DNA from: Candidatus Shapirobacteria bacterium | Lineage (GTDB): Bacteria; Patescibacteriota; Microgenomatia; UM-FILTER-40-11 | Length of the DNA stretch: 64,000 nucleotides | NCBI GenBank assembly: GCA_020059745.1 | Contig: JAGVBK010000003.1 | Coordinates: 1,123-65,122 of the forward strand | Reading direction: 5' to 3' | Shown: positions 44,328 to 64,000 of the stretch, one piece after another | Position numbering within the stretch: position 1 is the stretch's first letter | Layout of the letters: each line of letters opens with the position of its first letter | The notes under the pieces: generated by a model | Seen by the model: only the letters and a program-made list of their open reading frames with translations | Database searches by the model: none | What the model was told of the DNA's origin: nothing | Program-made: the position numbers and the translations under genes

Positions 44328-44365
44328 ATATTGATTTTACCATTTGTTGTATAATTGCTACACCA

Positions 44366-46118: not shown

Positions 46119-46161
46119 CTCTTGTTTATTTTAACACGGCAGTTATGCTATATTTAAATTA

Positions 46162-46177
46162 TGGAGGCAATATTGCC
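46162..46177. promoter_or_regulatory. Perfect 16-bp palindrome GAGGCAATATTGCCTC in the trmD/GT2 divergent region (candidate operator)
   Basis: Perfect dyad symmetry, read directly from the sequence. It lies between the trmD start (46118, -) and the GT2 start (46202, +). Confidence 0.4.
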
Positions 46178-46201
46178 TCTATAGTTCTTGAAAGGAAAAA
46201 A

Positions 46202-48370: not shown

Positions 48371-49545
48371 GGAGTCCAATCTGCAACCGGCGCAGTATTT
48401 TGGGCAATAAAGTTAATTGCAAAAAGGTAAACTGCGGGAATAATAATAAAAAGGGCAATTTTAAATTCTTTCTTTTGTAAAAACTCGTCAAAAGCAATAA
48501 GGCTGAAAGGAATTAAAGGAAGGCTGTAGCGGGCAAGATCACGGTGGGCTACAAATAATGTGGCACTGAAAAAAACTCCGGCAAAACTTGCCAAAGCGAA
48601 AAGCTTTTTCTTTATCAAAAAAACCACGGTTAAAGCTCCTAGCAGATATTGCCAAACCATGTCTTCTCTCCAAAAGTCTCCCAGCCAGCTTCTTTGGGGA
48701 GAAAAAGCTTGGTAAGGAGGGAAAAAGAGATGAAAATTATCACCGGAATGAAAATACGCCCAAAAATTTCCGGTTCTTATCTGGTAGAATCCGAAAACCA
48801 GCAATGCGGACAGGGGAATTAAAAGCAAAGGCAAAGACGGTTTTGCAATGTGGTTAAAAAGGTTTTTAAATGAAAAAGCTTTGCCTTTTTCTTTAATCAT
48901 TTTGTAAAAAAGGAAAATTTCAAAACCTGCAAAAAGAAGAATGCCCGGGCTTTTTGTTATTTGAGCCAATCCTCCGAAAATCCCTGCTAAAAGCAAATCA
49001 AGATAAACGTTTTTCTTTTTGGAAAAGAGATTGTTTTCTACCTTATCAAAAGCACTTTTGAAAAAATATATTGAGCTTAAGACAAAGAAAAGAAACATTG
49101 GTTCCGGGCTGCCGACTGCTTTGACTGCCACCCAGCGGGCCGGGAAAATAAGAAATAATAGGCTGAGGGAAAAAGGATCTTTTGAAAGTTTAAATTTATA
49201 AACCAAAAGATAAAAAGAAAAAAGGCAAAGTATAGAAAAAATCAAAGTAGAGCCAAGCATTGCCCAAGTTCCCGGCAGGAAAAGATCAAATACAAAGATT
49301 GAAAAAGGGTAACCGGGAAGGTGGGCCGGGTAATACTCCAGAGGTGTTGGCAAAGAGAACCTGCTTGCGATTTGAGCTTGATCATACCAGGTTTTGGCAA
49401 TGACAATATAATTTGGGCCGTCGTAGTTTTTAAAGACCGTTGTTATTCCTTCTTTTAGGTCGAAGAAAAAAGGCAGCCAGACAAATAAAGTTGCCAAAAA
49501 GGCAGCCAGAGTTAAGAAAAAAAGGTCTTTTTTTACTTTGCCCAC
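48361..49545 (-). CDS. Multi-pass membrane protein, putative GT-C-like glycosyltransferase (DUF2029/PIG-V-like)
   Basis: 394 aa with ~10 TM helices and a loop NYDGPNYIVIAKTWYD. GTG start in the track. Assignment is tentative. Confidence 0.35.
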   Translation of the reverse strand: MGKVKKDLFFLTLAAFLATLFVWLPFFFDLKEGITTVFKNYDGPNYIVIAKTWYDQAQIASRFSLPTPLEYYPAHLPGYPFSIFVFDLFLPGTWAMLGSTLIFSILCLFSFYLLVYKFKLSKDPFSLSLLFLIFPARWVAVKAVGSPEPMFLFFVLSSIYFFKSAFDKVENNLFSKKKNVYLDLLLAGIFGGLAQITKSPGILLFAGFEIFLFYKMIKEKGKAFSFKNLFNHIAKPSLPLLLIPLSALLVFGFYQIRTGNFWAYFHSGDNFHLFFPPYQAFSPQRSWLGDFWREDMVWQYLLGALTVVFLIKKKLFALASFAGVFFSATLFVAHRDLARYSLPLIPFSLIAFDEFLQKKEFKIALFIIIPAVYLFAINFIAQNTAPVADWTPYL

Positions 49546-49604
49546 TAGGTAAATGATAACAAAAACACGGTGTTTATGCTAATATTTTAATAAAGGAGAG
49601 GTGT

Positions 49605-50309
49605 ATGAAAAAACTTAGAGAACTTTCTTTGTTCTTTCCGGCTTATAACGAGCAGGAAAATATAGAAAACACAGTGGAAAAGGCTATCCCCGTGCTTTCT
49701 CAGGTTGCTGAAAAGTACGAGCTTATTATTGTCAATGACGGTTCGAAAGACAATACCGGGAAAATTGCCGCAAAACTGGCCCAAAAATACCCCTTTATCA
49801 GCGTAATTACCCATAACCCCAACCGCGGTTACGGTGGAGCGGTAAAATCAGGGCTTTACCATAGTAAGTATGAATGGATAGTTTTTACAGATTCAGACGG
49901 ACAGTTTGATTTTTCAGAAGTTGTCAAATTTATAGAAAAGCAAAAAGAGACAGGTGCTGATCTTGTAATCGGATATTATCTTAAAAGAGCGGTTAGTCCG
50001 ATAGTGATTTTTACTTCTAAATTGTGGGAATTTTTGGTATTCTTTCTTTTTGGTTTGAAAGTTACTGACACTGACTGTGGATTTAAGATGATAAGAAAAG
50101 AAGTTGTAGAAAAGATCCCGAAGCTTGAGGCGGAAAGAGGCCCTTTTATTACCAGCGAATTTTTAATTAAAGCTAAAAAAGCGGGTTTTAAATTTGCCGA
50201 GGTGGGGGTGAATCACTATCCAAGAAAAGGGGGCAAGGCTACAGGCAGAAGCTTTAAGGTTATCCTTTCCGGATTATCTGATCTTTTAAGGCTGCGCTTT
50301 TCAATATAA
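49605..50309 (+). CDS. GT2 polyprenol-phosphate mannose/glucose synthase (Dpm1-like)
   Basis: LSLFFPAYNEQENI...YELIIVNDGSKDNTG...RGYGGAV...DSD. 234 aa. RBS AAAGGAGAGGTG. Confidence 0.8.
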   Translation: MKKLRELSLFFPAYNEQENIENTVEKAIPVLSQVAEKYELIIVNDGSKDNTGKIAAKLAQKYPFISVITHNPNRGYGGAVKSGLYHSKYEWIVFTDSDGQFDFSEVVKFIEKQKETGADLVIGYYLKRAVSPIVIFTSKLWEFLVFFLFGLKVTDTDCGFKMIRKEVVEKIPKLEAERGPFITSEFLIKAKKAGFKFAEVGVNHYPRKGGKATGRSFKVILSGLSDLLRLRFSI

Positions 50310-50311
50310 AT

Positions 50312-51859
50312 ATGGAAAAGGTTTTTAGTGAGCTCAAACGCTACTGGCCGATTATTCTTATTGTTTTAATTTCTCTTACCCTCAGGCTTTATAGAATTTC
50401 TTCTTACATGACCTTTTTAGGAGACGAAGGGAGGGATGCCTTGGTTTGGCTGAGAATGGTAAGAAACGGAAAGCTGACGCTTATTGGCCCCCAAACCTCA
50501 ATCGGCAACATGTATTTAGGTCCTCTTTTTTACTATTTAATGCTTCCCTTTTATTTTGTTTTAGGAACGGCCGGTCCCTCGGTTGGGACAGCTCTTTTTG
50601 GCGGAGCAACCACTTTTCTTCTTTGGTATGTAGGGAAAAACTGGTTTTCTTTCCGGGTTGGCTTGTTTGCCGCTTTACTTTATGCTCTTTCTCCGGTAGC
50701 CATTGTCCTTTCGCGTTCTGCCTGGAACCCTAATATTATGCCCTTTTTTGCCTTGCTTTCTGCCTGGGGAATTTGGCAGTTTTGGCAAAAAGAAAACTTT
50801 CAGTGGTTGGCTTTGGAGGGGATAATCCTTTCCATAATTGTCCAGTCCCACTATCTTGGTTTGTTAATCATTCCCTTGGTGGGAGTTTTTTTTACAATTA
50901 AGTTTGTAAGCCTTATTAAGAATAAAGATAAAAACTTGAAAAAATACCTTTTAAATTTTTTCCTTTGTGTTTTTGTTTTTGTTTTCCTCACCTTTGTGCC
51001 GCTTCTTTGGTTTGATTTAAGACATGGCTTTATAAATTATAATTCGTTTTACAAGTTTTTTTCAGAAAGACAGACAACGGTTAATTTTAAGCCCTACAAG
51101 GCCATTCCAAATTTTTGGCCTCTTTGGAAAATGTTTGTAACCAGGCTGCTTGCGGCAAAAGATGAGCTCGTCGGGCTTTGGCTTTCAATTGCAATTATCC
51201 TAGGAGGAATTTTCATTGCTGCTTTTAATTTTAAAAGCGAACTAAAAAGGATATTAAAAAACAAAAACTTAAAACCGCTTCCTCCGGGCGTTGCCATTAT
51301 TCTTGCTTGGTTAGGGATAGGGCTTTTGGGTATGGGCCTTTACAAACAGCACATTTATGACCACTACTTTGGCTTTCTTTTTCCGGCTTTGTTTTTATTC
51401 ACTGCAGCTTTGCTCTCCAGGGTTTGGAAGCTTCAGTACCCGGGAAAGCTTTTGGCTTTGGTTTGTTTTTCAATTATTCTCCTTTACTCTTTAAAAGAAT
51501 CTCCCCTCAAAGATGAGCCGGGTTTTCAAATGCAGAAAACCAGGGAAATTAGCAAAAAAATAATTGAAGAATCGAAAGGGGAGCCTTTTAACTTGGGTTT
51601 AATTGCCAAACAAAATTATGATGCAGGCTACCGCTATTTCTTGGAAAAAGAAGGCCGCAAGGCAGTTGAGATTAATGCCTTAAAGCCTGAGGAAACAATA
51701 ACCAAGCAGCTTTTTGTTGCCTGTGAAGACGAAAAATGCGAGCCAATAGGCCACCCCAATGCTGAGATTGCCAATTTTGGCTGGGCAAAAATAGAAGAAG
51801 AATGGACCTTTCCCTGGGGAACAAAACTCTTTAAGCTGGTTCATTATGAGAAACAATAA
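50312..51859 (+). CDS. GT-C-like multi-pass membrane glycosyltransferase, paralogous family B (member 1)
   Basis: 515 aa. Conserved first-loop motif FLGDEGRDALVWLRMVRNGKLTLIGPQTSIGNMYLGPLFYY, shared with the 51869 and 55598 genes. Confidence 0.55.
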   Translation: MEKVFSELKRYWPIILIVLISLTLRLYRISSYMTFLGDEGRDALVWLRMVRNGKLTLIGPQTSIGNMYLGPLFYYLMLPFYFVLGTAGPSVGTALFGGATTFLLWYVGKNWFSFRVGLFAALLYALSPVAIVLSRSAWNPNIMPFFALLSAWGIWQFWQKENFQWLALEGIILSIIVQSHYLGLLIIPLVGVFFTIKFVSLIKNKDKNLKKYLLNFFLCVFVFVFLTFVPLLWFDLRHGFINYNSFYKFFSERQTTVNFKPYKAIPNFWPLWKMFVTRLLAAKDELVGLWLSIAIILGGIFIAAFNFKSELKRILKNKNLKPLPPGVAIILAWLGIGLLGMGLYKQHIYDHYFGFLFPALFLFTAALLSRVWKLQYPGKLLALVCFSIILLYSLKESPLKDEPGFQMQKTREISKKIIEESKGEPFNLGLIAKQNYDAGYRYFLEKEGRKAVEINALKPEETITKQLFVACEDEKCEPIGHPNAEIANFGWAKIEEEWTFPWGTKLFKLVHYEKQ

Positions 51860-51868
51860 CTTTTTAAA

Positions 51869-53338
51869 TTGTCTTTTATGAAAAAAAGCCCTACCAACTT
51901 TCTTCTTTTTTTAATCCTTGGTGCTTCAGCTTTTTTTAGGCTTTATCGGCTGGGCGATCTTTTAGGCTTTTGGTATGACCAGGGCAGGGATGCTTTAGTC
52001 ATTTGGGATCTTTTAAACTATGGAAAGTTTTTTTTAATCGGTCCGGTAACCGGAATAGACGGCATTTATCTGGGCCCTTTTTATTACTACCTTATTGCTC
52101 CTTTTTACTGGCTCGGAAAAGGGAACCCGGTTTTCCCGGCTGCAGGAATAGTTTTTCTTACCCTTGGCTCAATTTACCTAATCTTTTATTTAGCTAAAAA
52201 AATATACAACCCGCAAGTTGGTGTTTTGGCGGCATTTTTATATGGTTTCTCTTACAGCTTGGTTACTTTTTCAAGATGGCTTTCCAACCCAACGCCTTTA
52301 CCCTTTTTTACCATGGTTGTTCTTATTGGTCTTTTTCTCTTTATTAACGGCAAGAAAAAAGCTTTGCTTTGGACTGCTTTTATAATTGGCTTGTGCCTTC
52401 AGCTTGAAGCTGCTTCAGCTGTCTTTTTTCTTCCTGCCACTCTGGCAATTTTATTTTTGGAAAAAGAAGTTTTTAAAGATAAAAGGATTTTAATTCTTTC
52501 TTTTCTTGCTTTTTTTATTACCTTGCTGCCGCAAATTTTATTTGATATCCGCCACGAGGGGGTGCTTCGGGCTGCTTTTAATAAATTTTTAGTGACGGAG
52601 AAAAGTTTTAAGCTTTCTTTATGGCAAACCTTTAGATTAAGGCTTTTGACCTATTATGATGTGTTTTTTGCAAAGCTTTTTCCCGGCAGCAAAATTTTAA
52701 AATTAGTTTCTTTAGCCTCGTTTTCCGCAGGTTTTCTTTTCTTTAGAAAAAGGGTATTAACAAAAGGAGGGAAGATGCTTGCGATTTGGCTGGCTGCTCC
52801 TTTAGTTGGTTTTTTGTTTTATCAAGGTAATAATGGCTATGTCTGGGACTATTATTTTACCGGCGTTGTTCCGGCGTTTATTATCCTTTTTGCCGCTTCT
52901 TTAGGTTTTCTTTTGGAAAAAAGAGCTTACCAAATTGCGGTGATGGTCTTTTTGCTTCTTTTTGCTGTTTCCAATGTCAGACAGATCGGTAATTATCACA
53001 AAACCGGTATTGGCATTACTTTAAAAGCGCAGAAATGGGCTATTGACTGGATATATAAAGACGCAGACGGCAGTGAGTTTAATATTGACGCTTATGTGCC
53101 CCCCCAGATTTATTATTCCTATTCATATCTTTTTAAATGGTATGGAAAAAGTAAATACGGTCGGGAACCCGAGACAAACCTGGTTAAAAACCTGTATACT
53201 TTATATGAGCCGGACGGTGAGCATCCCCAGTTTTTAGAAGGTTGGCTTTTAAGGCAGGATACAATCGGCAAAGTGGTTAAAAGCGACTTTTGGGGAGACA
53301 TTACTGTCCAAAAAAGAGAAAGAGTAATGTATGAATAA
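51869..53338 (+). CDS. GT-C-like multi-pass membrane glycosyltransferase, paralogous family B (member 2)
   Basis: 489 aa. LLGFWYDQGRDALVIWDLLNYGKFFLIGPVTGIDGIYLGPFYYY is a paralog of the 50312 gene. Confidence 0.55.
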   Translation: MSFMKKSPTNFLLFLILGASAFFRLYRLGDLLGFWYDQGRDALVIWDLLNYGKFFLIGPVTGIDGIYLGPFYYYLIAPFYWLGKGNPVFPAAGIVFLTLGSIYLIFYLAKKIYNPQVGVLAAFLYGFSYSLVTFSRWLSNPTPLPFFTMVVLIGLFLFINGKKKALLWTAFIIGLCLQLEAASAVFFLPATLAILFLEKEVFKDKRILILSFLAFFITLLPQILFDIRHEGVLRAAFNKFLVTEKSFKLSLWQTFRLRLLTYYDVFFAKLFPGSKILKLVSLASFSAGFLFFRKRVLTKGGKMLAIWLAAPLVGFLFYQGNNGYVWDYYFTGVVPAFIILFAASLGFLLEKRAYQIAVMVFLLLFAVSNVRQIGNYHKTGIGITLKAQKWAIDWIYKDADGSEFNIDAYVPPQIYYSYSYLFKWYGKSKYGREPETNLVKNLYTLYEPDGEHPQFLEGWLLRQDTIGKVVKSDFWGDITVQKRERVMYE

Positions 53339-54089
53339 AAAGCCTTATCTTTCTGTTGTTATTCCTTGTTATAACGAGAAAGAGAATCTTGAACGCGGTG
53401 TTTTGGATGAAGTTTACGACTTTTTAAGAAAACAGGATTTTTTATGGGAAGTGATTATTTCCGATGACGGTTCAACTGATGAGAGCCGGGAGTTGGTGGC
53501 AAAACAAATTAAAGGAAAAAACAATTTCCGGCTAATTGAAAATCCTCACGGAGGAAAGCCGTCGGCGGTTTGGGGAGGAATAAAAAACGCAAACGGAGAG
53601 TATGTTCTTTTTACTGATATGGACCAGTCGGCTCCAATTGAGGAACTTAAGAAGCTGATGCCTTTTTTTGATGAATATGATGTGATTATCGGCTCACGAG
53701 GCATGGAAAGGGAGAACTTTTCTCTTTTGAGGAAAGTCGGTTCAAATGTTTTCAGGTTGGTAAGGAAAAGCCTTATGCTAAGGAGAATAAACGACACTCA
53801 GTGTGGTTTTAAAGCTTTTAAAACCAAAGTGGCTAAAGAGATTTTTCCTTTGCTTCAGTTTTTTAAAACCAACGAAACAATCAAAGGCTGGAAAGTTACT
53901 TCTTTTGATGTTGAACTTTTATTTATTGCCGAGAAGTTCGGTTATAAGATAAAAGAGGTTAAGGTGACCTGGAAAGACAGAGATGTAAGCACAGGCAAGA
54001 AAAAAAGCTATTTAAAAGAATCCCAAGATATGCTAAAGCAAATTTTTAGGGTTAAGCTTAATGATATCAAAGGAATGTACCACCTGTAA
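53331..54089 (+). CDS. GT2 polyprenol-phosphate sugar synthase (Dpm1-like)
   Basis: LSVVIPCYNEKENL...VIISDDGSTDES...FTDMDQS (DxD). 252 aa. Confidence 0.8.
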   Translation: MNKKPYLSVVIPCYNEKENLERGVLDEVYDFLRKQDFLWEVIISDDGSTDESRELVAKQIKGKNNFRLIENPHGGKPSAVWGGIKNANGEYVLFTDMDQSAPIEELKKLMPFFDEYDVIIGSRGMERENFSLLRKVGSNVFRLVRKSLMLRRINDTQCGFKAFKTKVAKEIFPLLQFFKTNETIKGWKVTSFDVELLFIAEKFGYKIKEVKVTWKDRDVSTGKKKSYLKESQDMLKQIFRVKLNDIKGMYHL

Positions 54090-54093
54090 TTAA

Positions 54094-55614
54094 ATGCTCA
54101 AAGAACTTCAGTTTTTGCACAAAGACTATCCATTAATACTTTTTTGCTTTATCTTGGTAGTTTTGTATTTTATCTCCAGGTTTTTAAACCTGACCATAAT
54201 TCCCGTTTTTGCCGATGAGGCAATTTACGTTCGTTGGGCGCAAGTGATGAGGGCGGTCAGCTCGCTTCGTTTTTTACCCCTATCAGACGGAAAACAGCCT
54301 CTTTTTATGTGGACTGTTATTCCTTTTTTAAAGATTATTAACGACCCTCTGGCTGCCGGAAGAACGGTATCTGTTTTTTTGGGGATGGGAACAATGGCAG
54401 GCGTTTTTACTTTAAGCCTTAGCCTTTTTAGGGATAAAAAGGCAGCTTTGCTTGCTTCCCTTTTTTATTTAATTACCCCCTTTGTTTTATTTTTTGACCG
54501 CATGGCTTTGGCAGACGCCATGCTTTCTTTTTTTATGGTCTGGTCCTTAATTCTTTTTATCTGGCTGGCAAAGTCACCCAGGCTGGATTTGGCAATGATT
54601 GCCGGAATTTTGACAGGTTTAGGTTTACTGACAAAATCTCCTGCCCTTTTTTTGCTTATCCTGCTTCCTTTTTCTCTGTTGGCCTTTTCTTTTAAAAATA
54701 AAAGCTTGCTTTCTTTGATAAAACTGGTGGGTTTTTGGCTGGTAATTTACGCTTTTGGATTTGCTATTTATAACATTCTAAGATTAGGTCCGGAGTTCCA
54801 TATGATTGGAATAAGGAATAAAGACTATGTGTTTTCTTTGGCCGAGATAATTAAGCATCCTTTTAATCCTTTAGTGGGGAACCTTAAAAGCGCTTTAAGC
54901 TGGTATTTTATCTTAATGACCCCCCCGGTTTTTTTCTCTTCCATTTTAGGGTTACTTATTTCTCTTAAGAAAAAATTTAGAGAAGGTTTGGTTCTTTTTC
55001 TCTTTTTCTTTGCCCCCCTTTTTGGCCAAAGCCTGATTGCCAAGGTTTATACGGCCAGATATATTCTATTTACCGTTCCTTTGCTTATTGTTTTTGCTTC
55101 TTTTTTTGTCTCTTTACTTTTTCAGAAAACAAAAAACAAAGTTCTTGCTACCTTTTTGCTAACGGCATTGTTTATCTTTCCCCTATATGAATCCTTGCTT
55201 TTAATTATCAAGCCTGAAAAGGCTTGGTTGCCGGAAAACGAAAGGAGCGGTTATCTTGAACAATGGACGGCAGGCTACGGCATCAAAGAATCTGCCAATT
55301 ATTTAAAAAAAGTAGCTAAAGAGGAAAAAGTTTTGGTCGGCACAGAGGGTTACTTTGGCACTCTGCCAGACGGCCTTTTAATTTACCTTGAAAAAGTTCC
55401 CAATATAACAGTAGTGGGGGTTGATTTTCCCGTAAGAAGCATTCCTGAGAAACTGGAGGACGGCAAAAAAGATAATCGGGTGTTTTTAATGGTAAACGAT
55501 TCTCGTTTTGAAGGGCCAGAAGATAATCTGAGGCTTGTAGCCAAGTATCCAAAGCCAAAAAATTTACTTACTGACAAAGCGGAAAATCTTTTGTTGTTTG
55601 AGATTCTTAAATAA
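54094..55614 (+). CDS. GT-C membrane glycosyltransferase, ArnT/PMT_2-like
   Basis: 506 aa. First loop IPVFADEAIYVRWAQ carries the DE motif. ~12 TM helices and a C-terminal periplasmic domain. Confidence 0.65.
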   Translation: MLKELQFLHKDYPLILFCFILVVLYFISRFLNLTIIPVFADEAIYVRWAQVMRAVSSLRFLPLSDGKQPLFMWTVIPFLKIINDPLAAGRTVSVFLGMGTMAGVFTLSLSLFRDKKAALLASLFYLITPFVLFFDRMALADAMLSFFMVWSLILFIWLAKSPRLDLAMIAGILTGLGLLTKSPALFLLILLPFSLLAFSFKNKSLLSLIKLVGFWLVIYAFGFAIYNILRLGPEFHMIGIRNKDYVFSLAEIIKHPFNPLVGNLKSALSWYFILMTPPVFFSSILGLLISLKKKFREGLVLFLFFFAPLFGQSLIAKVYTARYILFTVPLLIVFASFFVSLLFQKTKNKVLATFLLTALFIFPLYESLLLIIKPEKAWLPENERSGYLEQWTAGYGIKESANYLKKVAKEEKVLVGTEGYFGTLPDGLLIYLEKVPNITVVGVDFPVRSIPEKLEDGKKDNRVFLMVNDSRFEGPEDNLRLVAKYPKPKNLLTDKAENLLLFEILK

Positions 55615-56917
55615 GTTCTTGAAATTGAATTGTTTGATGTCCGCAATTAAAAAAGTTCTGCAAAAAAGCGAATTAATTGTTTTTTTAGTCATTACTTTCC
55701 TTTCTTTTTATCTTCGTTTTGCTGATTATCCTCGCTTGTTGAATTTTCATCACGATCCGGCATTTTACTTTCATGAGGTTAAAGATATGGTTGATTCGGG
55801 AAAACCAAGGCTAACAGGCCCTATTGTTTTAAGTAAGATGGTTGACGGAAGAGGGTTTTTTACCGGGCCCACGCATTATTACTTTTTGGCAGCATTGGGC
55901 CTTCTTTCAAATTGGGATGTAGTCTTTATGAGCGCGGTTTACACTTCCTTTTGGCTACTGGCTTATATTATCCTTTTTTTCTGGTTAAGATTTAGATTTG
56001 GAAAGGCGATTGCCTTACTTATTTATGGATTGCTTTCTTTTTACCCGGCAGTGGTTCCGATATCAAGAATGATATGGAATCCCCATTTTCTTCCTTTTTT
56101 CGGAAGCTTGTTTTTAGTGTTTCTGGATTTGAGAAAGAAGAAACCTTTTTTTTATTTTTTATCAGGCTTATTTTTTGGCCTAGCTTTTAGCGCTCACTAT
56201 GCTGCTGTTCTTTGGCTGCCGATAATCTTATGTGTTTTTGTTAACGACTATATTAAAGAGCGTTCTTTGCTTAGAAACTGGATTCTTTTTATACTTGCTG
56301 TAATCATTGCCGAATCGCCATTTATTTTATTTGAATTGAGGAATAATTTTTACAATTTAAGGACTTTTTATTTCCAATTACAAAACTATAAACCGTCAGC
56401 AGGATATACACTTGCCCTTTCCTACTATTATGTTTTTCCTTATATCCCGGTGGCAGCATTTTTGCTGGCTGCAATTTTGAAACGATTAAAAAGCTCGCCC
56501 TTATTTCCCTTTGTTAATACTTTACTTGTGGTTTTGATTTTTGTTTTTTTAATTGACTCGTTTTACGGAGAAGGCAAAAAAACTCTATACCCTTATTCCT
56601 GGAATTTGAGTACCCAGAGAAAAGTTACTCAAATGATCATTGATGATAATGAACCAAGTTTCGAGGTAGCAGAGACAATTAATTCCGACACCCGGGCTTT
56701 GGATCTTCGCTGGTGGTTACGCATGGAGGGGGTAAGGCCAATGGATGTAACTCAATATGACAAAGCGGAAGTTTTGTATTTGGTAGCTCCTAATGAGAGA
56801 CCTCCGGAAGAAGAAACTGTTTGGGAAGTAATTAGCCTAAGGCCGTTTGAAATCAAGAAAAAGGAAAATTTGGGAGGAGGCCTGATTTTTTACAAGCTAG
56901 TAAAAATGGTAAAATAG
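55598..56917 (+). CDS. GT-C-like multi-pass membrane protein, paralogous family B (member 3, divergent)
   Basis: 439 aa. Motif DPAFYFHEVKDMVDSGKPRLTGPIVLSKMVDGRGFFTGPTHYYF parallels the family B first-loop motif. The true start may be an internal Met. Confidence 0.45.
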   Translation: MRFLNKFLKLNCLMSAIKKVLQKSELIVFLVITFLSFYLRFADYPRLLNFHHDPAFYFHEVKDMVDSGKPRLTGPIVLSKMVDGRGFFTGPTHYYFLAALGLLSNWDVVFMSAVYTSFWLLAYIILFFWLRFRFGKAIALLIYGLLSFYPAVVPISRMIWNPHFLPFFGSLFLVFLDLRKKKPFFYFLSGLFFGLAFSAHYAAVLWLPIILCVFVNDYIKERSLLRNWILFILAVIIAESPFILFELRNNFYNLRTFYFQLQNYKPSAGYTLALSYYYVFPYIPVAAFLLAAILKRLKSSPLFPFVNTLLVVLIFVFLIDSFYGEGKKTLYPYSWNLSTQRKVTQMIIDDNEPSFEVAETINSDTRALDLRWWLRMEGVRPMDVTQYDKAEVLYLVAPNERPPEEETVWEVISLRPFEIKKKENLGGGLIFYKLVKMVK

Positions 56918-56923
56918 CCTCAC

Positions 56924-58591
56924 ATGCTTAAAAAAATTTACCCTTGGATTTTACTGTTGCTGCTTTCCTTTTTTTCTTTTAAATCCCTTCTTCGGCCGGG
57001 ATATTTTCCGATGCACGACGACATGCAGGCAATGCGCCTGCTTCAGCTTGATAAATGCCTTAGAGACGGCCAGTTTCCCTGCCGCTGGGTGCCTGACATG
57101 GGTTATGGTTATGGCTATCCTCAGTTTGTTTATTATTCTCCCTTGCCATATTATGTGATGGAGCTTTTCCATCTTTCAGGGTTATCTTTTCTTGATTCAG
57201 TTAAAGCCGGTTTTGCTTTGAGCTTTATTCTTTCGGGTTTGGCAATGTTTTTACTGGGCAAGTCTCTATGGGGGAAGCTTGGCGGGCTTGTCAGCGCGAT
57301 TTTTTATGTTTATGCTCCCTACCGGGCTTCAGACGCTTTTAGCAGGGGGGCAGTGGGAGAGTTTTGGGCTTTGGTATTTTTGCCGTTAATTTTCTGGTCG
57401 GTTCATGAATATGTTAAAACCGAGAAAAGTAAGTACCTTGTCTTTTTGGCTCTTTCTTATGGCAGCCTTCTTGTTACTCACAACATTACCTCCCTTGCTT
57501 TTACTCCCTTTTTAGCCTTATGGTCACTTTTTTTGCTTTATCTTTACAAAAAATGGAAATTGGTTTTAAAGCTTGTCCCTGGAGGGCTTTGGGGAATTGG
57601 TTTGGCATCATTTTTTCTTCTGCCGGTTATTTTTGAGAAAAAGTTTGCCCATACCGAAACCATGATTATGGGTTATTTTAACTATTTAGCTCATTTTGTC
57701 TCCTTAAAACAGCTTTTCTGGTCAGGCCACTGGGGTTTTGGCTCAAGCGAGCTTGGGCCAAATGACGATCTTTCTTTTAGTATTGGAGTTTTGCACTGGC
57801 TTTTTGCCTTAGTTGCTTTGGTTCTTTTCTTTATTAAAGAAAGAAAAGAAAAAATCTTTAAAATTGCAAGTTTTCTTTTTTTGACCGGGCTGATAGCGGT
57901 GTTTATGGCTCACCAACGGTCGGTCTTTATATGGAACAGGCTTCCATTTCTTGAGTACTTCCAGTTTCCCTGGAGGTTTTTAACCATTGTCACTTTTAGT
58001 TTTTCTTCTTTGGCCGGAGCCTTGATATATTTTGTAAAATCAGAGGCAAATAAAAAAACCTTGGCCTTTTTCTTGATTGTTTTAGGAATTTTCTTTAACA
58101 GTTTTTATTTTAATCCAAGGGAATGGTATGACCTTTCTGATGAGGAAAAGTTTTCTGGCGAGCTTTGGCAAAAACAGCTTACCATAAGCATTTTTGACTA
58201 TCTTCCAATTTTTGCGAAGATGCCGCCTAGCAGCGAGGCGCCTGGACTTCCATTGGTGGTTCAGGGGCAGGCGGAAATTTTGGATTACCAAAAAGGCTCA
58301 AATTGGCAAAAAGGAAAAATAAAAGTGTTTTCCGAAAATTCGAAAATTCAAATTCCCTCTTACTATTTTCCCGGTTTTAAGGTTTGGGTTAATGGAAGAG
58401 AAACGGAAATTGACTATAATAATGACCTAGGATTAATAAGAATAACCCTTTCCAGGGGCGAAAACGAAGTTATGCTTAAGCTTACCAAAACACTGCCGAG
58501 AAAAGCGGGGGATTTTTTAACCCTTTTTAGTGTTGGGGCCTTAATTTATTTTTTGTTTTATGAAAAGAATTTTTTCAAAAGAAAATCTTAA
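56924..58591 (+). CDS. GT-C-like membrane glycosyltransferase, tandem triplicated family A (copy 1)
   Basis: 555 aa. N-terminal TM then LLRPGYFPMHDDMQAMRLLQLDKCLRDGQFPCRWVPDMGYGYGYP. Eleven or more TM helices and a ~150-aa C-terminal soluble domain. Confidence 0.55.
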   Translation: MLKKIYPWILLLLLSFFSFKSLLRPGYFPMHDDMQAMRLLQLDKCLRDGQFPCRWVPDMGYGYGYPQFVYYSPLPYYVMELFHLSGLSFLDSVKAGFALSFILSGLAMFLLGKSLWGKLGGLVSAIFYVYAPYRASDAFSRGAVGEFWALVFLPLIFWSVHEYVKTEKSKYLVFLALSYGSLLVTHNITSLAFTPFLALWSLFLLYLYKKWKLVLKLVPGGLWGIGLASFFLLPVIFEKKFAHTETMIMGYFNYLAHFVSLKQLFWSGHWGFGSSELGPNDDLSFSIGVLHWLFALVALVLFFIKERKEKIFKIASFLFLTGLIAVFMAHQRSVFIWNRLPFLEYFQFPWRFLTIVTFSFSSLAGALIYFVKSEANKKTLAFFLIVLGIFFNSFYFNPREWYDLSDEEKFSGELWQKQLTISIFDYLPIFAKMPPSSEAPGLPLVVQGQAEILDYQKGSNWQKGKIKVFSENSKIQIPSYYFPGFKVWVNGRETEIDYNNDLGLIRITLSRGENEVMLKLTKTLPRKAGDFLTLFSVGALIYFLFYEKNFFKRKS

Positions 58592-60266
58592 AAAAGACAT
58601 TTTTTCCCTAGGACTTGTCTTGCTTTTATCTGTTCCCGCTTTTTTGCCATTGCTAAGGCCCGGGTATTTTCCAATGCATGATGATATGCAGGTAATAAGG
58701 CTAGAGCAGATGGAAAAATGCTTTCTTGACGGCCAGATTCCCTGCCGCTGGTCGCCAGACCTGGGAGCCGGTTTTGGCCAGCCGATGTTTAATTATTATT
58801 CTGCCTTTCCTTATTACTTTGGCGTTTTTTTCAGGATTTTTGGCTTTCAGTTTATTGACATTGTAAAGCTTCTCTTTCTTTTTTCTCTTGCTCTTTCCGG
58901 TGTCTTTATGTACTTTTTAGGCAAGCAATTTTTCGGGAAGCTGGGAGGAATAACGGCAGCGGTTTTTTATGTTTATGCGCCTTATCATGCGGTTGATATT
59001 TATGTTAGGGGAGCTTTGGCTGAATCCTGGGCAATAACATTTTTCCCCTTGGTCTTTTTACTGGTTTATAAACTTATTAAAGAAGGGAAACCAATATTTT
59101 TGGTTGGGTCGGTTTTATCTTTATTTCTTGTTTTTACCTCTCATAATGTTATGACCCTGATCTTTACTCCGGTTTTGCTTTTGTGGTCATTTTTTGCTAT
59201 GGCCGTTACGGGCCAAAAACGCCTTAAAGAGGTTTTGCTTTTTTTCTTTTGGTCGTTTTGTCTTTCTGCCTTTTTTATATTGCCGGCTTTTTTTGAAAAA
59301 GGGTATGTACTGATTGATTCTTTAAAAGCCGACTATTTTGATTTTCGTTTGCACTTTGCCAGTAAAAAACAGCTTCTTTGGTCAAGGCATTGGGGTTTTG
59401 GCGGCTCACTCGGGCCTGACAGCGATATGTCGCTCCAGATTGGCTGGCCGCACTGGCTTTTAGCCTGTTTTTCGGCTTTGTCTTTAGCGGCATATACTCT
59501 TAAAAAAAACTTATTAAGGAAAAGCGAAACTCTTTTAATCCCTGTCTTTTTTTTAAGTCTTTTTCTGGTTTCAGTTTTTTTTACTCACCGGCTGTCTTTG
59601 TTTTTTTGGGAAAATCTTCCTCTTCTTTCCTATGCCCAGTTTCCGTGGCGGTTTTTAGCGCTTGTTATTTTCAGTTCATCATTCTTGGCTGGGTTTATCT
59701 CCTTTTGGTTAAAAGACAAGGTAAAAGGAAAGCTTGGAATTTTACTTAGTCTCTTTATAATATTTAGCGCCATTTTTTTAAATTATTCTTATTTTAAACC
59801 CCAGGTGATGTACGGTTTTGCTACAGATGATTGGAAGTTGAGCGGAGAAGAGCTTAATAAGCAGAAAAAATCCGCTCTTTTTGACTATCTGCCTAAGCAG
59901 GTAAAAGACGCTCCTTTGCAAATTGCCCCCGATTCTCCCTGGATTGTTTCCGGCGAGGCCGAAATTTCCGAGTTTGAAAAAAGGACAAATTTTTTCAGAA
60001 TGACCGTTTCCGCAAAAGGAGATCTGCCTGCTACAATAAGGGTACCGGTTTTTGATTTTCCTAATTGGGAAATTTATGCAGATCAAAAAGTAATTCCCCA
60101 TAATTCGGAAAACAAACAAGGAGTGATTGAGTTTGAGATTGGCAGCGGCAAACACACCGTGGTCGGCTGGTTCAGAAATACCCCGCTAAGGGATCTTGCT
60201 AATGCGGTCACGCTTTTTTCTTTTGGCTCGCTGATTGTTTATTTTATTCTTAAAGAAGAAAGATGA
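58560..60266 (+). CDS. GT-C-like membrane glycosyltransferase, tandem triplicated family A (copy 2)
   Basis: 568 aa. LLRPGYFPMHDDMQVIRLEQMEKCFLDGQIPCRWSPDLGAGFGQP. Colinear with copy 1. Confidence 0.55.
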   Translation: MKRIFSKENLKKDIFSLGLVLLLSVPAFLPLLRPGYFPMHDDMQVIRLEQMEKCFLDGQIPCRWSPDLGAGFGQPMFNYYSAFPYYFGVFFRIFGFQFIDIVKLLFLFSLALSGVFMYFLGKQFFGKLGGITAAVFYVYAPYHAVDIYVRGALAESWAITFFPLVFLLVYKLIKEGKPIFLVGSVLSLFLVFTSHNVMTLIFTPVLLLWSFFAMAVTGQKRLKEVLLFFFWSFCLSAFFILPAFFEKGYVLIDSLKADYFDFRLHFASKKQLLWSRHWGFGGSLGPDSDMSLQIGWPHWLLACFSALSLAAYTLKKNLLRKSETLLIPVFFLSLFLVSVFFTHRLSLFFWENLPLLSYAQFPWRFLALVIFSSSFLAGFISFWLKDKVKGKLGILLSLFIIFSAIFLNYSYFKPQVMYGFATDDWKLSGEELNKQKKSALFDYLPKQVKDAPLQIAPDSPWIVSGEAEISEFEKRTNFFRMTVSAKGDLPATIRVPVFDFPNWEIYADQKVIPHNSENKQGVIEFEIGSGKHTVVGWFRNTPLRDLANAVTLFSFGSLIVYFILKEER

Positions 60267-61984
60267 AAAAAATAATTGAGAAAGAGTTTTTTTGGATTGT
60301 TCTTCTTTTAGGGCTTTCCTTTCTTTTAATTTTACCAATTTTTAAAAGAGGTTTTTACCCTTTTCATGATGAGTCTCATGTGGCTAACCTTTACCAAATG
60401 GTGAGAGCTGTTTCTTCAGGCCAAATACCGCCGCGTTGGGCGCCTGACTTTAGTTTTAACTATGGATATCCTTTTTTTAATTTTAACTATCATTTGCCTT
60501 TTTACCTTGGTGCCTTTTTCAATCTTGTTTTCGGCCTTAGCCTGGTTTGGTCTTTGAAAATCGTTTTTGCCTTAAGCGTTCCTTTGTCAGCCCTTGCTTT
60601 TTACAAGCTTGGAAGAAAGTTTTCCTCTTCTGGTTTTTCGTTTTTTGCGGCCATGATTTACTGCCTTGCTCCTTATCGGGCAGTTGATCTTTATGTTAGA
60701 GGAGCGGTGGGAGAGCTTTGGGGGTTTGTTTTCATGCCCTTGGTTTTGCTTTCTTTTATAAACCTCATTGAGAAAAGAAGCCTTAAAAAAATAATTTTTG
60801 CCGGGCTTTCCCTGGCGGGGCTGGTTATTTCCCACAGCTTAACCACCATTGTTTTTATGCCTTTTGCGGCCTTGTTTCTTTTTTCGTGTATTCTTTTTGG
60901 GAAAGATAAAAAAAACGCCATTATTTCTTCTTTTTTTGGGCTGGTTTTAGGCTTGTCTTTAAGTGCTTACTACTGGCTGCCTGCTTTTCTGGAAAAAAAG
61001 CTAATGCAGCCCGGTACGCCTTTTAATCCTTTTGACCATTTTCCTTTTATTAAGCAGTTAGTTATTCCTTCCTGGGGATACGGAGCTTCCGTTTGGGGGC
61101 CGGGCGACGGCATGTCTTTTCAGATCGGAATTATCAATATCTTTTTTATTTTATTTTCTTTATTTTTGCTTTTGTTTTTCAGGAAAAAAACGGAAAAGTT
61201 TAATCTTAAGCTTTTTTTTGTTTCCTTAACTTTGTTTTTTTTAAGTCTTTTTTTAATGAATATTCGCTCGGGCTTTATTTGGTCTGCTTTTCCTTTGGGT
61301 GAATATGTTCAATTTCCCTGGAGATTTTTAATTATTTCCACTTTTTTTAGCTCGCTTTCTTTAGTGTTTGTGGAAAGGGTTATTGACCTTGAAAAAAAGG
61401 CGATTAGTAAATACGGGATACTGGCTCTTGTCTTTTTTTCCTTTTTTATAAACAAGCCTTATTTTAAACCTGAAAAAGAAGTTTTTACCGACGATGATTA
61501 CTTTTTAAAAAGATTTTTTATTGACCGGATTTCAACCGGGAAAAGCAAGGAACTCTCCGAAGCCTACTTTTTTTTAAGTGAGGATTATCTGCCTTTACCG
61601 GTTTGGGTTGAGAAAAGGCCCGACTCTTTGCCGGAAGAAAAAGTTGAGTTTTTGGCCGATCAGCCAAATGGGAAAATTACCTACAAAGAGATAACCCCGG
61701 TTAAATATGAAATTCAAGTTGTTTCTGAAAAGGAAGGCAAGGTAATAATTAATAACTACAACTATCCAGGCTGGACAGCAAAGGTAAACGGAAAAATTGC
61801 AGAGATAAAAACTGAAAAGCCTTATGGCAACATGTCAATTGAGGTACCTGCCGGGGCAAGCTCGATTTTGCTTTTCTTTAAGGAAACGCCGCTTCGGCTT
61901 GCAGCAGATTTAGTTAGTCTTTTCTCTTTTTTATTTTCAGCCCTAGCCCTTCTTTTAATAAAAAAAGTGGATTTTAAAAAATGA
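60263..61984 (+). CDS. GT-C-like membrane glycosyltransferase, tandem triplicated family A (copy 3, most divergent)
   Basis: 573 aa. FKRGFYPFHDESHVANLYQMVRAVSSGQIPPRWAPDF. Same architecture as copies 1 and 2. Confidence 0.5.
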   Translation: MKKIIEKEFFWIVLLLGLSFLLILPIFKRGFYPFHDESHVANLYQMVRAVSSGQIPPRWAPDFSFNYGYPFFNFNYHLPFYLGAFFNLVFGLSLVWSLKIVFALSVPLSALAFYKLGRKFSSSGFSFFAAMIYCLAPYRAVDLYVRGAVGELWGFVFMPLVLLSFINLIEKRSLKKIIFAGLSLAGLVISHSLTTIVFMPFAALFLFSCILFGKDKKNAIISSFFGLVLGLSLSAYYWLPAFLEKKLMQPGTPFNPFDHFPFIKQLVIPSWGYGASVWGPGDGMSFQIGIINIFFILFSLFLLLFFRKKTEKFNLKLFFVSLTLFFLSLFLMNIRSGFIWSAFPLGEYVQFPWRFLIISTFFSSLSLVFVERVIDLEKKAISKYGILALVFFSFFINKPYFKPEKEVFTDDDYFLKRFFIDRISTGKSKELSEAYFFLSEDYLPLPVWVEKRPDSLPEEKVEFLADQPNGKITYKEITPVKYEIQVVSEKEGKVIINNYNYPGWTAKVNGKIAEIKTEKPYGNMSIEVPAGASSILLFFKETPLRLAADLVSLFSFLFSALALLLIKKVDFKK

Positions 61985-62679
61985 AACTTTCTGTGGTTGT
62001 CCCTGTTTTTAACGAAGAAAAAACCATTAAAAAGATACTTGAAAAAGTATTGTCTGAAAAAACTCCGAAAGAGGTGATTGTGGTTGATGACGGCTCTTGT
62101 GACAAAACAAAAGAAATTCTTAAAGATATTAAAGACGAAAGAGTGAAAATAATCTTTCATGAGCAGAACAAAGGCAAAGGAGCGGCAGTGAGAACAGGTA
62201 TTAAAAATGCCGAAGGAGATTTTTTGATTATTCAAGACGCAGATTTGGAGTACGATCCGGAATGTTACCAGAAATTGGTCAATATTGTTTCTAAAGATAT
62301 AAAAGTTGTTTACGGAACAAGATTAAAAAATTTAAAATTCAGGCTTTTTGGAAAAAATAAAACTCCCATGCCACTGCATTTTGCCGCCAATCGTTTTTTG
62401 ACTTTACTGACAAATTTTCTTTACGGTTCAAAAATTACCGACATGGAAACCTGCTATAAACTCATGGCCAAAGAAGTTTACCAAAGTCTTGAGCTTGTTT
62501 CCGATAAATTTGAAATTGAGCCGGAAATAACGGCAAAAATATTAAAAAAAGGATTTAAAATTATTGAGATGCCAATTGTCTTTAAGCCAAGAACTTATAA
62601 GCAAGGGAAAAAAATAAAAACCAAAGACGCTTTTGCTGCTGTTTGGTCGCTTGTTAAATATAGAATAGTAAACAAATGA
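61981..62679 (+). CDS. GT2 polyprenol-phosphate sugar synthase (Dpm1-like)
   Basis: LSVVVPVFNEEKTI...VIVVDDGSCDKT...QDADLEYD. 232 aa. Confidence 0.8.
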   Translation: MKLSVVVPVFNEEKTIKKILEKVLSEKTPKEVIVVDDGSCDKTKEILKDIKDERVKIIFHEQNKGKGAAVRTGIKNAEGDFLIIQDADLEYDPECYQKLVNIVSKDIKVVYGTRLKNLKFRLFGKNKTPMPLHFAANRFLTLLTNFLYGSKITDMETCYKLMAKEVYQSLELVSDKFEIEPEITAKILKKGFKIIEMPIVFKPRTYKQGKKIKTKDAFAAVWSLVKYRIVNK

Positions 62680-64000
62680 GAACCAAACTTCTTTTATTAT
62701 TAATTTTCATTATTGCAATCTTTCTTTTTTCTTCTACCCTTTCTTGCTTTTTTGTTCAGGATGACTTTTTCCAGTTTAAGATGGCGGAGGTTGAAAAAGC
62801 AGGGGACTTTTTTGCATTTTTTCTTCCGGGAAATAAATTCGGTTACAGGTTTTACCGTCCTTTGACGCATCAGGGCTTTTTCTTTCTCGGCAGAAGTCTT
62901 TTTGGCCTGAATCCTCTTGGTTTTAGATTAATAATGACAGGGTTTTTCTTAGCCAACATTTATTTGGTTTACCGTTTGGCGGAAAAGATGGTTTCAGAGA
63001 AAGTTGGCCTTATTGCCGGCTTTCTTTATGCAATTTGTTCCTGCCATTTTACCTCTTTATCTTATATTTCCACTTTTGGGAGTATTGCCGTTGCATTTTT
63101 TATCTTTTTGACAATTCATTTTTATCTTAAGGAAAAAAAGCTTGCTCCCATTATTTTTGTTTTGGCTTTATTGTCTTGGGAAACGGCAGTTACTCTCCCC
63201 CTGGTCCTTTTGCTGGCTGAAATGTTTGGCGAAAAAAGATGGGAAAGGCTGATTATATATTTTTTAATTGCCGCAGGATATGTTGCTTTTCGTTTGTCGT
63301 TTTTTGCTTTTCCGAAAGGGGACAGCTATCAAATGTCCCTGACCGTTAAAAGTATTTTGAATACTTTGGCTTGGTATGTTTTTTGGGCGCTAGGAGCTCC
63401 TGAAAACATGGTTGATTTTGTTGGCTCAGGATTCAGGCCCACGGAGCGTTTTAACGAAGTATTTGGCTTAAGCGGTAAGCTTATTGTTGCCGGAGCAATG
63501 CTCGTCTTAATAGCGGTTGGCATCAGGTTTTTTCAGCTTTTGCTTCAAAAAAACAATAAACAAATCCGGGCTGAAATAATTGTCTTCTCCGGCTGGTTTT
63601 TGATTTTTCTTTTGCCTTTTCTTTTTTGGCCGCAGCACAAATTTGCGTATTATCTTGAAGCACCCCTTTTCGGGTTTTGCGTTCTAATTTCTTTGGCTAT
63701 CACTAAACTTCCCAAACTTTTTGCTTATTTGGTTTTTCTTTCTTTTATTACCACTTCACTTTTAACTGTCAACTTTTACAGAAATAACTATTGGACGGTA
63801 GGCAGGTCTAAACTTGCCAAAGAGTTAATTGACGATTTAAAAGTTAATTTCCCTGATGTTCAAAAAGGTTCTATTTTTTATTTTAAAAATGACCCTGAAT
63901 ATAAATTTATTTCCAAGGAATGGGGAGGATCAAGCTCTCAAGCAAAAATTGCAATTTCAGGCTGCAATGCGCCCCAAATAATTTATGGCGATAAAACTCT
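62676..64000 (+). CDS. GT-C membrane glycosyltransferase (PMT_2/ArnT-like), 3' end beyond the window
   Basis: The ATG at 62676 overlaps the upstream stop (ATGA). Translation MRTKLLLLLIFIIAIFLFSSTLSCFFVQDDFFQFKMAEV... has a DD motif in the first loop. The multi-TM ORF stays open to the window end, so it is absent from the ORF track. Confidence 0.6.
   Translation, partial: MRTKLLLLLIFIIAIFLFSSTLSCFFVQDDFFQFKMAEVEKAGDFFAFFLPGNKFGYRFYRPLTHQGFFFLGRSLFGLNPLGFRLIMTGFFLANIYLVYRLAEKMVSEKVGLIAGFLYAICSCHFTSLSYISTFGSIAVAFFIFLTIHFYLKEKKLAPIIFVLALLSWETAVTLPLVLLLAEMFGEKRWERLIIYFLIAAGYVAFRLSFFAFPKGDSYQMSLTVKSILNTLAWYVFWALGAPENMVDFVGSGFRPTERFNEVFGLSGKLIVAGAMLVLIAVGIRFFQLLLQKNNKQIRAEIIVFSGWFLIFLLPFLFWPQHKFAYYLEAPLFGFCVLISLAITKLPKLFAYLVFLSFITTSLLTVNFYRNNYWTVGRSKLAKELIDDLKVNFPDVQKGSIFYFKNDPEYKFISKEWGGSSSQAKIAISGCNAPQIIYGDKT

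Follow-up and report, generated by a model that had tools for sequence, protein, structure and literature searches.

In this study, we analysed a stretch of 64,000 nucleotides from Candidatus Shapirobacteria bacterium (assembly GCA_020059745.1, contig JAGVBK010000003.1), called the window below, which carries three related genes, c1, c2 and c3, head to tail on the forward strand. We believe that the membrane proteins they encode probably work as glycosyltransferases of the C fold class (GT-C) on the outer face of the membrane. The three genes are as follows.

56924-58591, forward strand: copy 1 (c1), 555 aa, PF10131-like GT-C membrane glycosyltransferase; GenBank RJR23680.1
58560-60266, forward strand: copy 2 (c2), paralogue of 568 aa; GenBank RJR23679.1
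60263-61984, forward strand: copy 3 (c3), 573 aa, the most divergent paralogue; GenBank RJR23678.1

All three GenBank entries come from a Candidatus Microgenomates metagenome-assembled genome (MAG) and are labelled 'hypothetical protein'. The c1 and c2 genes overlap by 32 nt. The overlap is 4 nt (ATGA) between c2 and c3 and again 4 nt (ATGA) between c3 and the glycosyltransferase family 2 (GT2) gene behind it, which starts at 61981. Full-length BLASTP comparisons gave 41% identity for c1 and c2 (E 9e-134), 33% for c1 and c3 (E 2e-72) and 31% for c2 and c3 (E 9e-63), so that, as judged from the alignments, a chance resemblance is excluded. The preliminary description of this DNA, which had seen three head-to-tail paralogues with overlapping stops and starts, was right in this respect, as the open reading frames (ORFs) lie at these positions and match one another at E <= 9e-63. 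Its statement that divergence grows progressively from the first copy to the third has to be replaced: c1 and c2 group as sisters, with c3 as the outlier.

Public gene calls differ at two starts. An alternative call of c1 begins at M30 (P0001, 526 aa) and loses the conserved first transmembrane (TM) helix, TM1 (56924-57013), and one of c2 begins 20 residues later (P0390, 548 aa; 58560-58620). The longer starts are backed by the conserved TM1 and an L-R-P-G-Y-F-P segment. Two antisense ORFs, one of 125 aa inside c2 (59778-60155, reverse strand) and one of 137 aa inside c3 and the downstream GT2 gene (61822-62235, reverse strand), are almost certainly spurious, judging from their low-complexity composition rich in Lys, Phe and Asn.

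Fold and membrane topology

An AlphaFold2 model of c1 was built from a 97-sequence alignment and reached a mean predicted local distance difference test score (pLDDT) of 94.5 and a predicted template modelling score of 0.93. When this model was compared with the Protein Data Bank (PDB) by Foldseek, ranks 1-38 were all GT-C enzymes, mostly with a probability of 0.9-1.00, and 18 of them had E <= 1e-3. The matches included human and yeast STT3, AglB, PglB, AftD, AftA, ArnT, EmbA/B/C, ALG12, Pmt4, Pmt1-Pmt2 and DPY19, and the best of them was STT3 (6s7t_A, E 7e-6). Because only GT-C enzymes occupy these ranks, the assignment of c1 to the GT-C fold superfamily (class GT-C_A) is secure at the level of the model, which confirms the GT-C membership proposed earlier. 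The template modelling scores (TM-scores) of these matches normalised to the query (TMq) were 0.30-0.46 over 270-760 aligned columns; since the scores are similar across the subfamilies, no specific GT-C subfamily is singled out.

The helices of the c1 model span residues 2-23, 89-129, 132-141, 144-166, 170-185, 187-207, 211-227, 289-305, 310-329, 349-370, 374-395 and 524-554, and the helix at 89-129 covers TM2 and the beginning of TM3, with a Gly-rich turn (WGKLGG) between them. Hydropathy analysis of c1 found 11 strongly hydrophobic segments together with an amphipathic TM3 at 121-141. About 12 TM helices with both ends in the cytoplasm are predicted for each protein. Under this 12-TM topology, c1 has 17 Lys or Arg among 41 residues of the cytoplasmic loops and 4 among 35 residues of the short outer loops. 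The alternative, an 11-TM topology, would place every Lys-rich loop outside. Within clades, the conservation of the five extracytoplasmic loops (EL) was 0.71, 0.77, 0.93, 0.68 and 0.64 for EL1, EL2, EL3, EL4 and EL5, respectively, and that of the cytoplasmic loops was 0.38-0.54; higher conservation of the outer loops would be expected of an active site that faces outward. The conservation of C45 and C53 of loop 1 in the c1 and c2 clades also fits an oxidising, external location. The positive-inside rule, the conservation and the clade-conserved Cys pair all put loop 1 outside, in agreement with the earlier placement of the acidic motif in the first extracytoplasmic loop. Neither a fold other than GT-C nor a cytoplasmic location of the conserved loop was found.

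The outer loop of c1 at residues 228-288 is long, with a dip in pLDDT at 271-280, and may resemble the mobile external loops that PglB and ArnT have. Two further features follow the last core helix.

58253-58483, forward strand: c1 beta-sandwich domain (residues 444-520, ~80 residues, extracytoplasmic), with strands taken from the AlphaFold2 model
58493-58585, forward strand: c1 C-terminal TM helix (residues 524-554), the anchor of the beta-sandwich, with a basic tail in the cytoplasm behind it

The beta-sandwich sits in an extracytoplasmic region of ~125 residues (396-523) after TM11. The soluble C-terminal domain of the preliminary description thus exists, and it is a beta-sandwich, but it is not a free end, because the final TM helix lies behind it. 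A model of this domain alone had a pLDDT of 78.5, with the sandwich itself mostly above 85. Foldseek matches of the domain were weak (best E 5e-3, none <= 1e-3), and most of them were accessory beta-sandwiches of glycoside hydrolases (GH30, GH127/146, GH29, sterylglucosidase and GH5). The similarity is compatible with carbohydrate binding and too slight for the domain to be called a carbohydrate-binding module. This C-terminal extracytoplasmic region is the least conserved part between the three clades, with the consensus identical at 18% of positions, and a difference in acceptor specificity among c1, c2 and c3 is plausible from the sequences.

Conserved residues of the putative active site

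Three motifs of c1 stand out.

57014-57022, forward strand: H31-D32-D33, acidic motif of extracytoplasmic loop 1 with a putative catalytic role
57077-57097, forward strand: P52-C-R-W-V-P-D58, second conserved motif of loop 1
57962-57979, forward strand: Q347-F-P-W-R-F352, signature shared by the whole family, where TM10 reaches the outer side

The acidic motif reads HDD at residue 31 of c1 and residue 40 of c2 and HDE at residue 35 of c3, and it is followed about 20 residues later by PCRWVPD, PCRWSPD and PPRWAPD, respectively. H-D-[DE] and P-x-R-W-x-P-D are therefore present in all three proteins as described before, and the leading Phe of the reported motif F-P-[MF]-H-D-[DE] is not, as c3 reads YPFHDE. 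In the c1 model, H-D-[DE] is located ~9 residues past TM1, the position at which the catalytic Asp or Glu of solved GT-C enzymes sits. D32 is invariant in the 97-sequence alignment and kept in at least 90% of 215 family members from all three clades.

Conservation of C45 and C53 (57056-57058 and 57080-57082) is limited to the c1 and c2 clades, where C53 is kept in 100% of sequences; in the c3 clade, position 53 is Pro and position 45 lacks a conserved Cys. The pair may form a clade-specific disulfide. QFPWR (c1 residues 347-351) was found in 215 of the 215 family members and is invariant in the 97-sequence alignment; on this count it is a stronger signature of the family than the loop 1 motifs first named. 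The residues conserved in at least 90% of the 215 members across the three clades are D32, R54, D58, R141, E146, H186, E238, H257, QFPWR 347-351, D406 and YLP 426-428, and all of the most conserved of them (D32, R54, D58, R141, E146, H186, E238, H257, QFPWR and D406) lie in loops or helix ends that are predicted to face outward. Because the same putative active-site set is kept in all three clades, c1, c2 and c3 are probably all catalytically active.

Orthologue clades, gene order and selection

A scan with one genome per species gave 322 relatives. The 80 best loci were taken; they come from Woese-, Davies-, Shapiro-, Collier- and Blackburnbacteria and from MAGs labelled 'Microgenomates' or 'Patescibacteria'. 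The labels 'uncultured Gammaproteobacteria', 'Pseudomonadales' and 'Clostridia' were also met on many third-party MAG records (L004, L006, L007, L009-L014 and others) whose locus is of the Microgenomates type, shares the synteny and is 40-65% identical; these labels are probably placeholders or wrong taxonomy.

For 83 loci, the array pattern was classified by sorting each family ORF according to its best-matching paralogue in the window (1, 2 or 3). The pattern was 1-2-3 in 36 loci, 1-2-3-1 in 11 and 1-1-2-3 in one, so that ~48 of the 83 loci keep the c1-c2-c3 order; the rest are partial or variant arrays, several of them cut by contig ends. In the 1-2-3-1 loci (L019, L030, L031, L038, L041, L043, L045, L047, L050, L055 and L057), the fourth gene, behind c3, groups with the c1 clade. 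Most named examples of this pattern are Daviesbacteria and the others carry generic or doubtful labels, and the orders 1-3-2 and 1-3-1 occur in other lineages. In the Woesebacteria genome GCA_001792515.1, three genes whose ends overlap, coding for 560, 554 and 552 aa, come after a GT2 gene.

A neighbour-joining tree of 215 sequences resolved three clades that track gene position, with 78 of 93, 52 of 59 (second-position genes) and 46 of 60 sequences at the corresponding place. The best matches, with 49-87% identity to c1 and 40-82% to c3, all lie nearer to these genes than the paralogues within the genome do, and orthologues in other Microgenomates classes reach 67% for c1 and 55% for c3, compared with 31-41% among the in-genome paralogues. 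As the top matches are closer than the in-genome paralogues, both duplications would predate the divergence of these classes. By sequence comparison, c1, c2 and c3 are thus ancient orthologue groups whose order is kept across Woese-, Davies-, Shapiro- and Collierbacteria.

Selection was assessed by the Nei-Gojobori method (NG86) as the ratio of nonsynonymous to synonymous substitution rates (dN/dS) against the orthologous locus L084 (JGI 3300015370), whose proteins are 82-86% identical in amino acids. The values were 0.093, 0.124 and 0.109 for c1, c2 and c3, respectively, and 0.108 for the adjacent GT2 gene, which indicates that each copy is under purifying selection. The synonymous rate (dS) between paralogues was 1.7-4.1 and saturated, so that dN/dS among the three copies is uninformative and the comparison with orthologues was used instead. 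The preliminary description had taken the trio for a tandem triplication that may still be diversifying. Neither the clades that match array position nor these ratios agree with that picture, and the synteny across related genomes points to a conserved module instead of a local triplication.

Family assignment

In a Pfam scan, PF10131 (PTPS_related) was the sole family matched by all three copies, with scores of 25.6, 13.6 and 27.1 bits for c1, c2 and c3, respectively; the gathering cutoff is 26.4 bits, and only c3 passes it. The match covers the first ~300 of 621 profile positions, about half of the profile. Among the scored candidates, 1,341 homologues of c1 and 1,176 of c3 were found at E <= 1e-3. 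Most of them carry a precomputed PF10131 match, some also PF09586 (YfhO) or, weakly, PF13231 (PMT_2), and they are named 'hypothetical protein', '6-pyruvoyl-tetrahydropterin synthase-related protein' or 'glycosyltransferase family 39 protein'. Fused relatives reach 104 bits against PF10131, and orthologues also pass the cutoff. At E <= 1e-3, an exhaustive profile search recovered 23,400 representative clusters, of which 8,113 remained at E <= 1e-30.

PF10131 belongs to the GT-C clan CL0111 with the entry 'function unknown', and the sole paper that mentions the family is PMC7801869. A literature search for PF10131, PTPS_related and COG5617 returned mentions of 'function unknown' only and no characterised member. 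The motif combination had earlier been left without a named family; the family is in fact already catalogued, and the trio is best described, on these scores, as a borderline, divergent branch or subfamily of PF10131.

An NCBIfam scan of c1-c3 gave no match, and neither c1 alone nor the 97-sequence profile found a meaningful match by sequence among PDB chains. Full-length c1-c3 had no match to PF09586 (PF09586.16) in hmmscan at E <= 0.1, and none to PF02366 (PMT) or PF13231 (PMT_2) at the same threshold. A precomputed PF09586.17 match is listed for the 526-aa call of c1 and for some homologues, and the c2-c3 fusion P0241 scores 63.5 bits against PF09586. Alignments by hhalign of the family profile with single neighbouring proteins (memX, memY and the PMT-like protein, described below) gave probabilities of 2-10%, which are not significant.

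The surrounding gene block and natural fusions

The trio is embedded in a dense block of glycosyltransferase genes.

46145-47344, forward strand: GT2-GtrA fusion (PF00535 and PF04138, the GtrA/DPMS TM domain), conserved here in many related loci
48361-49545, reverse strand: PMT-type GT-C with a Pfam match, also a member of the conserved block
49605-50309, forward strand: GT2, 234 aa, first gene of a tight same-strand array
50312-51859, forward strand: PMT_2-type GT-C with a Pfam match
51869-53338, forward strand: PMT_2-type GT-C with a Pfam match
53331-54089, forward strand: GT2, 252 aa, similar to ArnC and dolichyl-phosphate mannose synthase (DPMS)
54094-55614, forward strand: PMT/PMT_2-type GT-C, 506 aa, with a Pfam match; upstream neighbour of the trio in 35 related loci
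55598-56917, forward strand: memX, 439-aa membrane protein directly upstream of c1, PMT_2-like GT-C by its homologues
61981-62679, forward strand: GT2, 232 aa, ATGA-coupled to c3; PF00535 at 130.6 bits; candidate maker of the lipid-linked donor
62676-64000, forward strand: memY, multi-pass membrane protein running off the window end, with a QDD motif after the first TM helix

From 49605 to the window end, 11 same-strand genes (GT2, PMT_2, PMT_2, GT2, PMT, memX, c1, c2, c3, GT2, memY) follow one another with gaps of at most 10 nt or with overlaps. In total, the interval 46145-64000 interleaves four GT2 genes, one of them fused to GtrA, with at least eight GT-C-type membrane proteins, and it co-localises genes for a lipid-sugar synthase of the A fold class (GT-A), a GtrA domain and GT-C enzymes. 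In the conserved block, c1-c3 are accompanied by five other GT-C genes of the PMT/PMT_2 type, and the order GT2-GtrA, PMT (reverse strand), GT2, PMT_2, GT2, PMT, c1, c2, c3 recurs in dozens of related Microgenomates loci.

The GT2 protein behind c3 gave AglJ as its best NCBIfam match, with PgfS, ArnC and Dol-P-hexose transferase next, none of which reached its cutoff any more than AglJ did, and its best solved relative is the Pyrococcus dolichyl-phosphate mannose (Dol-P-Man) synthase 5mlz (E 5.8e-18), followed by GtrB (5ekp) and ArnC. For the GT2 protein at 53331, the best solved relative is ArnC (9bhc, E 9e-16), followed by DPMS and GtrB. The GT2-GtrA fusion at 46145 is a candidate for the lipid-sugar synthase and flippase component of the block. 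memX has no Pfam match itself, many of its homologues carry PF13231 and are named ArnT-like or GT39, and it shows an H-H-D motif just past the first TM helix. It is missing from this position in most related loci, where a PMT-type gene adjoins c1 directly. memY has no Pfam match and is probably another unclassified GT-C.

Natural fusions join members of this gene set. GT2-c1 fusions of ~820-830 aa, with the GT2 domain at the cytoplasmic N-terminus, occur in five independent clusters at 50% identity, adjacent copies are fused as c2-c3 in P0241 and as c1-c2 in P0242, and the metagenomic protein P0383 (1067 aa) joins a c1-like domain to a relative of memY. The multi-domain relatives (P0241, P0242, P0243, P0251, P0245, P0248, P0267, P0279 and P0329) are GT2-c1 fusions or contain two to six family domains, in ORFs of up to 3,329 aa.

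A scan for promoters and terminators found 24 terminator-like sites, compared with 22.9 expected from shuffled sequence, and defined no operon boundaries, and a tRNA scan of the window found none. The remaining window is ordinary chromosome (SecA, UvrABC, RF, FtsX and TrmD). Three other places in it touch on glycans or the cell surface. A 2075-aa ORF at 29235-35462 with SdrD_B, SpaA, lamin-tail, DUF11 and DUF642 domains encodes a giant surface or adhesin-like protein, for which a role as glycosylation target is conceivable. Another PMT_2 GT-C gene is found 30 kb upstream (16590-17987, reverse strand). A sugar-nucleotide and glycan cluster at 39652-45409 contains an NTP_transferase, a GH130 phosphorylase, GT1, SDR and an NDP-sugar dehydratase/epimerase.

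Comparison with known GT-C systems

In Bacillus and Listeria, the GT-C enzyme YfhO (PF09586) adds sugars to lipoteichoic or wall teichoic acid, together with the GT2 protein CsbB and the GtrA-type flippase GtcA. It shares with the trio the GT-C fold and the gene logic of a GT2 lipid-sugar synthase, a GtrA domain and a GT-C enzyme, whereas the YfhO profile has 835 positions and the trio proteins have 555-573 aa. ArnT, PMT_2 and PMT (GT83/GT39) are of the same class and of similar size; ArnT 5f15 matched c1 with a TMq of 0.43 and a score normalised to the target (TMt) of 0.44, and five such genes neighbour the trio in the conserved block. The signatures of the trio (H-D-[DE], P-x-R-W-x-P-D and Q-F-P-W-R) differ from theirs.

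The mycobacterial genes embC-embA-embB are likewise three tandem paralogous GT-C genes. The c1 model matched EmbA/B/C, AftA and AftD, and they also have an extracytoplasmic beta-sandwich after the TM core. In contrast, the Emb proteins are ~1,030-1,090 aa long with large carbohydrate-binding domains and show no sequence similarity to the trio. STT3, AglB and PglB (GT66) were the best Foldseek matches of c1, with a probability of 1.00 over 450-530 aligned columns, and resemble c1 in having an acidic motif in external loop 1 as well as an external loop that is long and flexible (228-288 in c1). They differ in that c1-c3 have neither WWDYG nor sequence similarity to them, in the moderate TM-score of 0.37-0.46 and in the small TM-anchored C-terminal domain; moreover, the likely donor of the trio, judged from its neighbours, is a polyprenyl-phosphate (Pol-P) monosaccharide and theirs is a polyprenyl-diphosphate (Pol-PP) oligosaccharide. 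Taken together, the trio most resembles YfhO/PMT_2-type decorating enzymes in its behaviour, and the embCAB genes as a tandem set of paralogues.

Proposed function and alternatives

Multi-component transmembrane glycosylation systems, in which a GT-A lipid-sugar synthase is combined with a GtrA-type flippase and a GT-C transferase, have been described (PMC8035078). In this study, we believe, with a probability of roughly 70%, that c1-c3 are anciently diverged, non-redundant extracytoplasmic GT-C enzymes that use lipid-phosphate-sugar donors. Because the GT2 neighbours resemble DPMS, GtrB and ArnC, a GtrA domain is present, the block is conserved and GT2-c1 fusions occur, the donors of c1-c3 would be Pol-P-monosaccharides; this donor class is inferred from the gene context. 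We speculate that the neighbouring GT2 enzymes would join a monosaccharide to polyprenyl phosphate on the cytoplasmic side, and that the lipid-linked sugar would then be flipped across the membrane, possibly with the GtrA-domain protein that the block encodes. Each paralogue, with D32 as the catalytic base, might then pass the sugar to a different position or at a different step of an extracytoplasmic acceptor, which could be a cell-envelope glycopolymer or a surface protein. The three genes are translationally coupled within a dense array of at least 11 genes, in which GT2 and GT-C enzymes alternate.

Several points weigh against this proposal. PF10131 is reached at or below the cutoff by c1 and c2, and the literature on the family offers no characterised member. 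The TM-scores to solved GT-C structures are moderate (0.36-0.46) and much the same from one GT-C subfamily to another, and the C-terminal domain found weak matches. D32 is a putative catalytic residue assigned by its position, and the fusion proteins may be real Rosetta-stone fusions or may be frameshift or gene-call artefacts of metagenome calls.

The trio could also be the subunits of a single obligate hetero-oligomeric GT-C machine, a reading which overlaps ours and adds physical association. EmbA-EmbB and Pmt1-Pmt2 are hetero-oligomeric GT-C pairs. The strictly kept gene order with overlapping or coupled starts and stops speaks for such a machine, as do the natural fusions of neighbouring copies in the same order (P0241 and P0242), which the even number of TM helices with both ends in the cytoplasm makes topologically possible. 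However, the patterns 1, 11, 13, 131 and 132 in ~25 of the 83 loci (some cut by contig ends) do not fit an obligate complex, all copies keep the full set of catalytic residues, which a scaffold subunit would not need, and the supporting fusions may be gene-call artefacts. We therefore consider this unlikely. A bolder form of the idea, to which we give somewhat less credit still, is that the trio is an obligate hetero-oligomeric GT-C polymerase, and that a Microgenomates-specific envelope glycopolymer, built almost entirely outside the cell from Pol-P-monosaccharides, is mainly assembled by this polymerase together with the products of the conserved block (46145 to beyond 64000), which has four GT2 genes and no fewer than five further GT-C genes. 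If this were true, the function of the orphan family PF10131 would be defined, together with a surface structure unique to this lineage of the candidate phyla radiation (CPR).

It is quite improbable that c1-c3 are oligosaccharyltransferases of the STT3/AglB/PglB kind, which would transfer a glycan en bloc from Pol-PP to Asn or to Ser/Thr of surface proteins. These enzymes were the best structural matches (E 7e-6 to 9e-4), and the gene for the 2075-aa surface protein lies in the same window. However, no WWDYG-type motif was found in c1-c3 by the patterns WWD[YWFN]G or W.D.G, no STT3 Pfam match was found at E <= 0.1, and no PDB chain was matched by sequence. The TM-scores to oligosaccharyltransferases (0.37-0.46) are no better than those to ArnT and AftD (0.43-0.45), the C-terminal domain is a small beta-sandwich with a TM anchor and not a large periplasmic domain, and the neighbouring GT2 proteins resemble synthases of polyprenyl-monophosphate monosaccharides. 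Finally, a lineage-specific tandem triplication that is now diversifying under relaxed or positive selection on the newer copies, as the adjacency of the genes and their strongest difference in the extracytoplasmic C-terminal domain might suggest, is refuted by the orthologue phylogeny (orthologues in other classes, at 67% for c1 and 55% for c3, closer than paralogues at 31-41%; clades matching array position; order kept in ~48 of the 83 loci), and with dN/dS at 0.09-0.12 for all three genes and paralogue dS saturated at 1.7-4.1, it has hardly any chance of being right.

Significance

The original observation is real and its GT-C reading is right; what it had found is an old, conserved three-gene module of an orphan family that was already catalogued. 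No new mechanism is involved, as the block follows the known logic of lipid-sugar synthase, flippase and GT-C enzyme, and the result will not surprise a specialist. The surface composition of CPR bacteria matters because these uncultured organisms, with their very small genomes, rely on contact with hosts. A block of more than 15 kb with at least eight GT-C and four GT2 genes, in which the trio is under purifying selection, indicates a substantial, lineage-typical investment in extracytoplasmic glycosylation, and the block probably decorates the cell surface with sugars. The confident model of c1, the candidate catalytic residues (D32, R54, D58, R141, E146 and QFPWR), the partner GT2 genes and the natural GT2 fusions are handles for experiments. 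PF10131 is a large orphan family with no solved structure, and the trio offers an entry point to its function and to the surface glycobiology of CPR bacteria.

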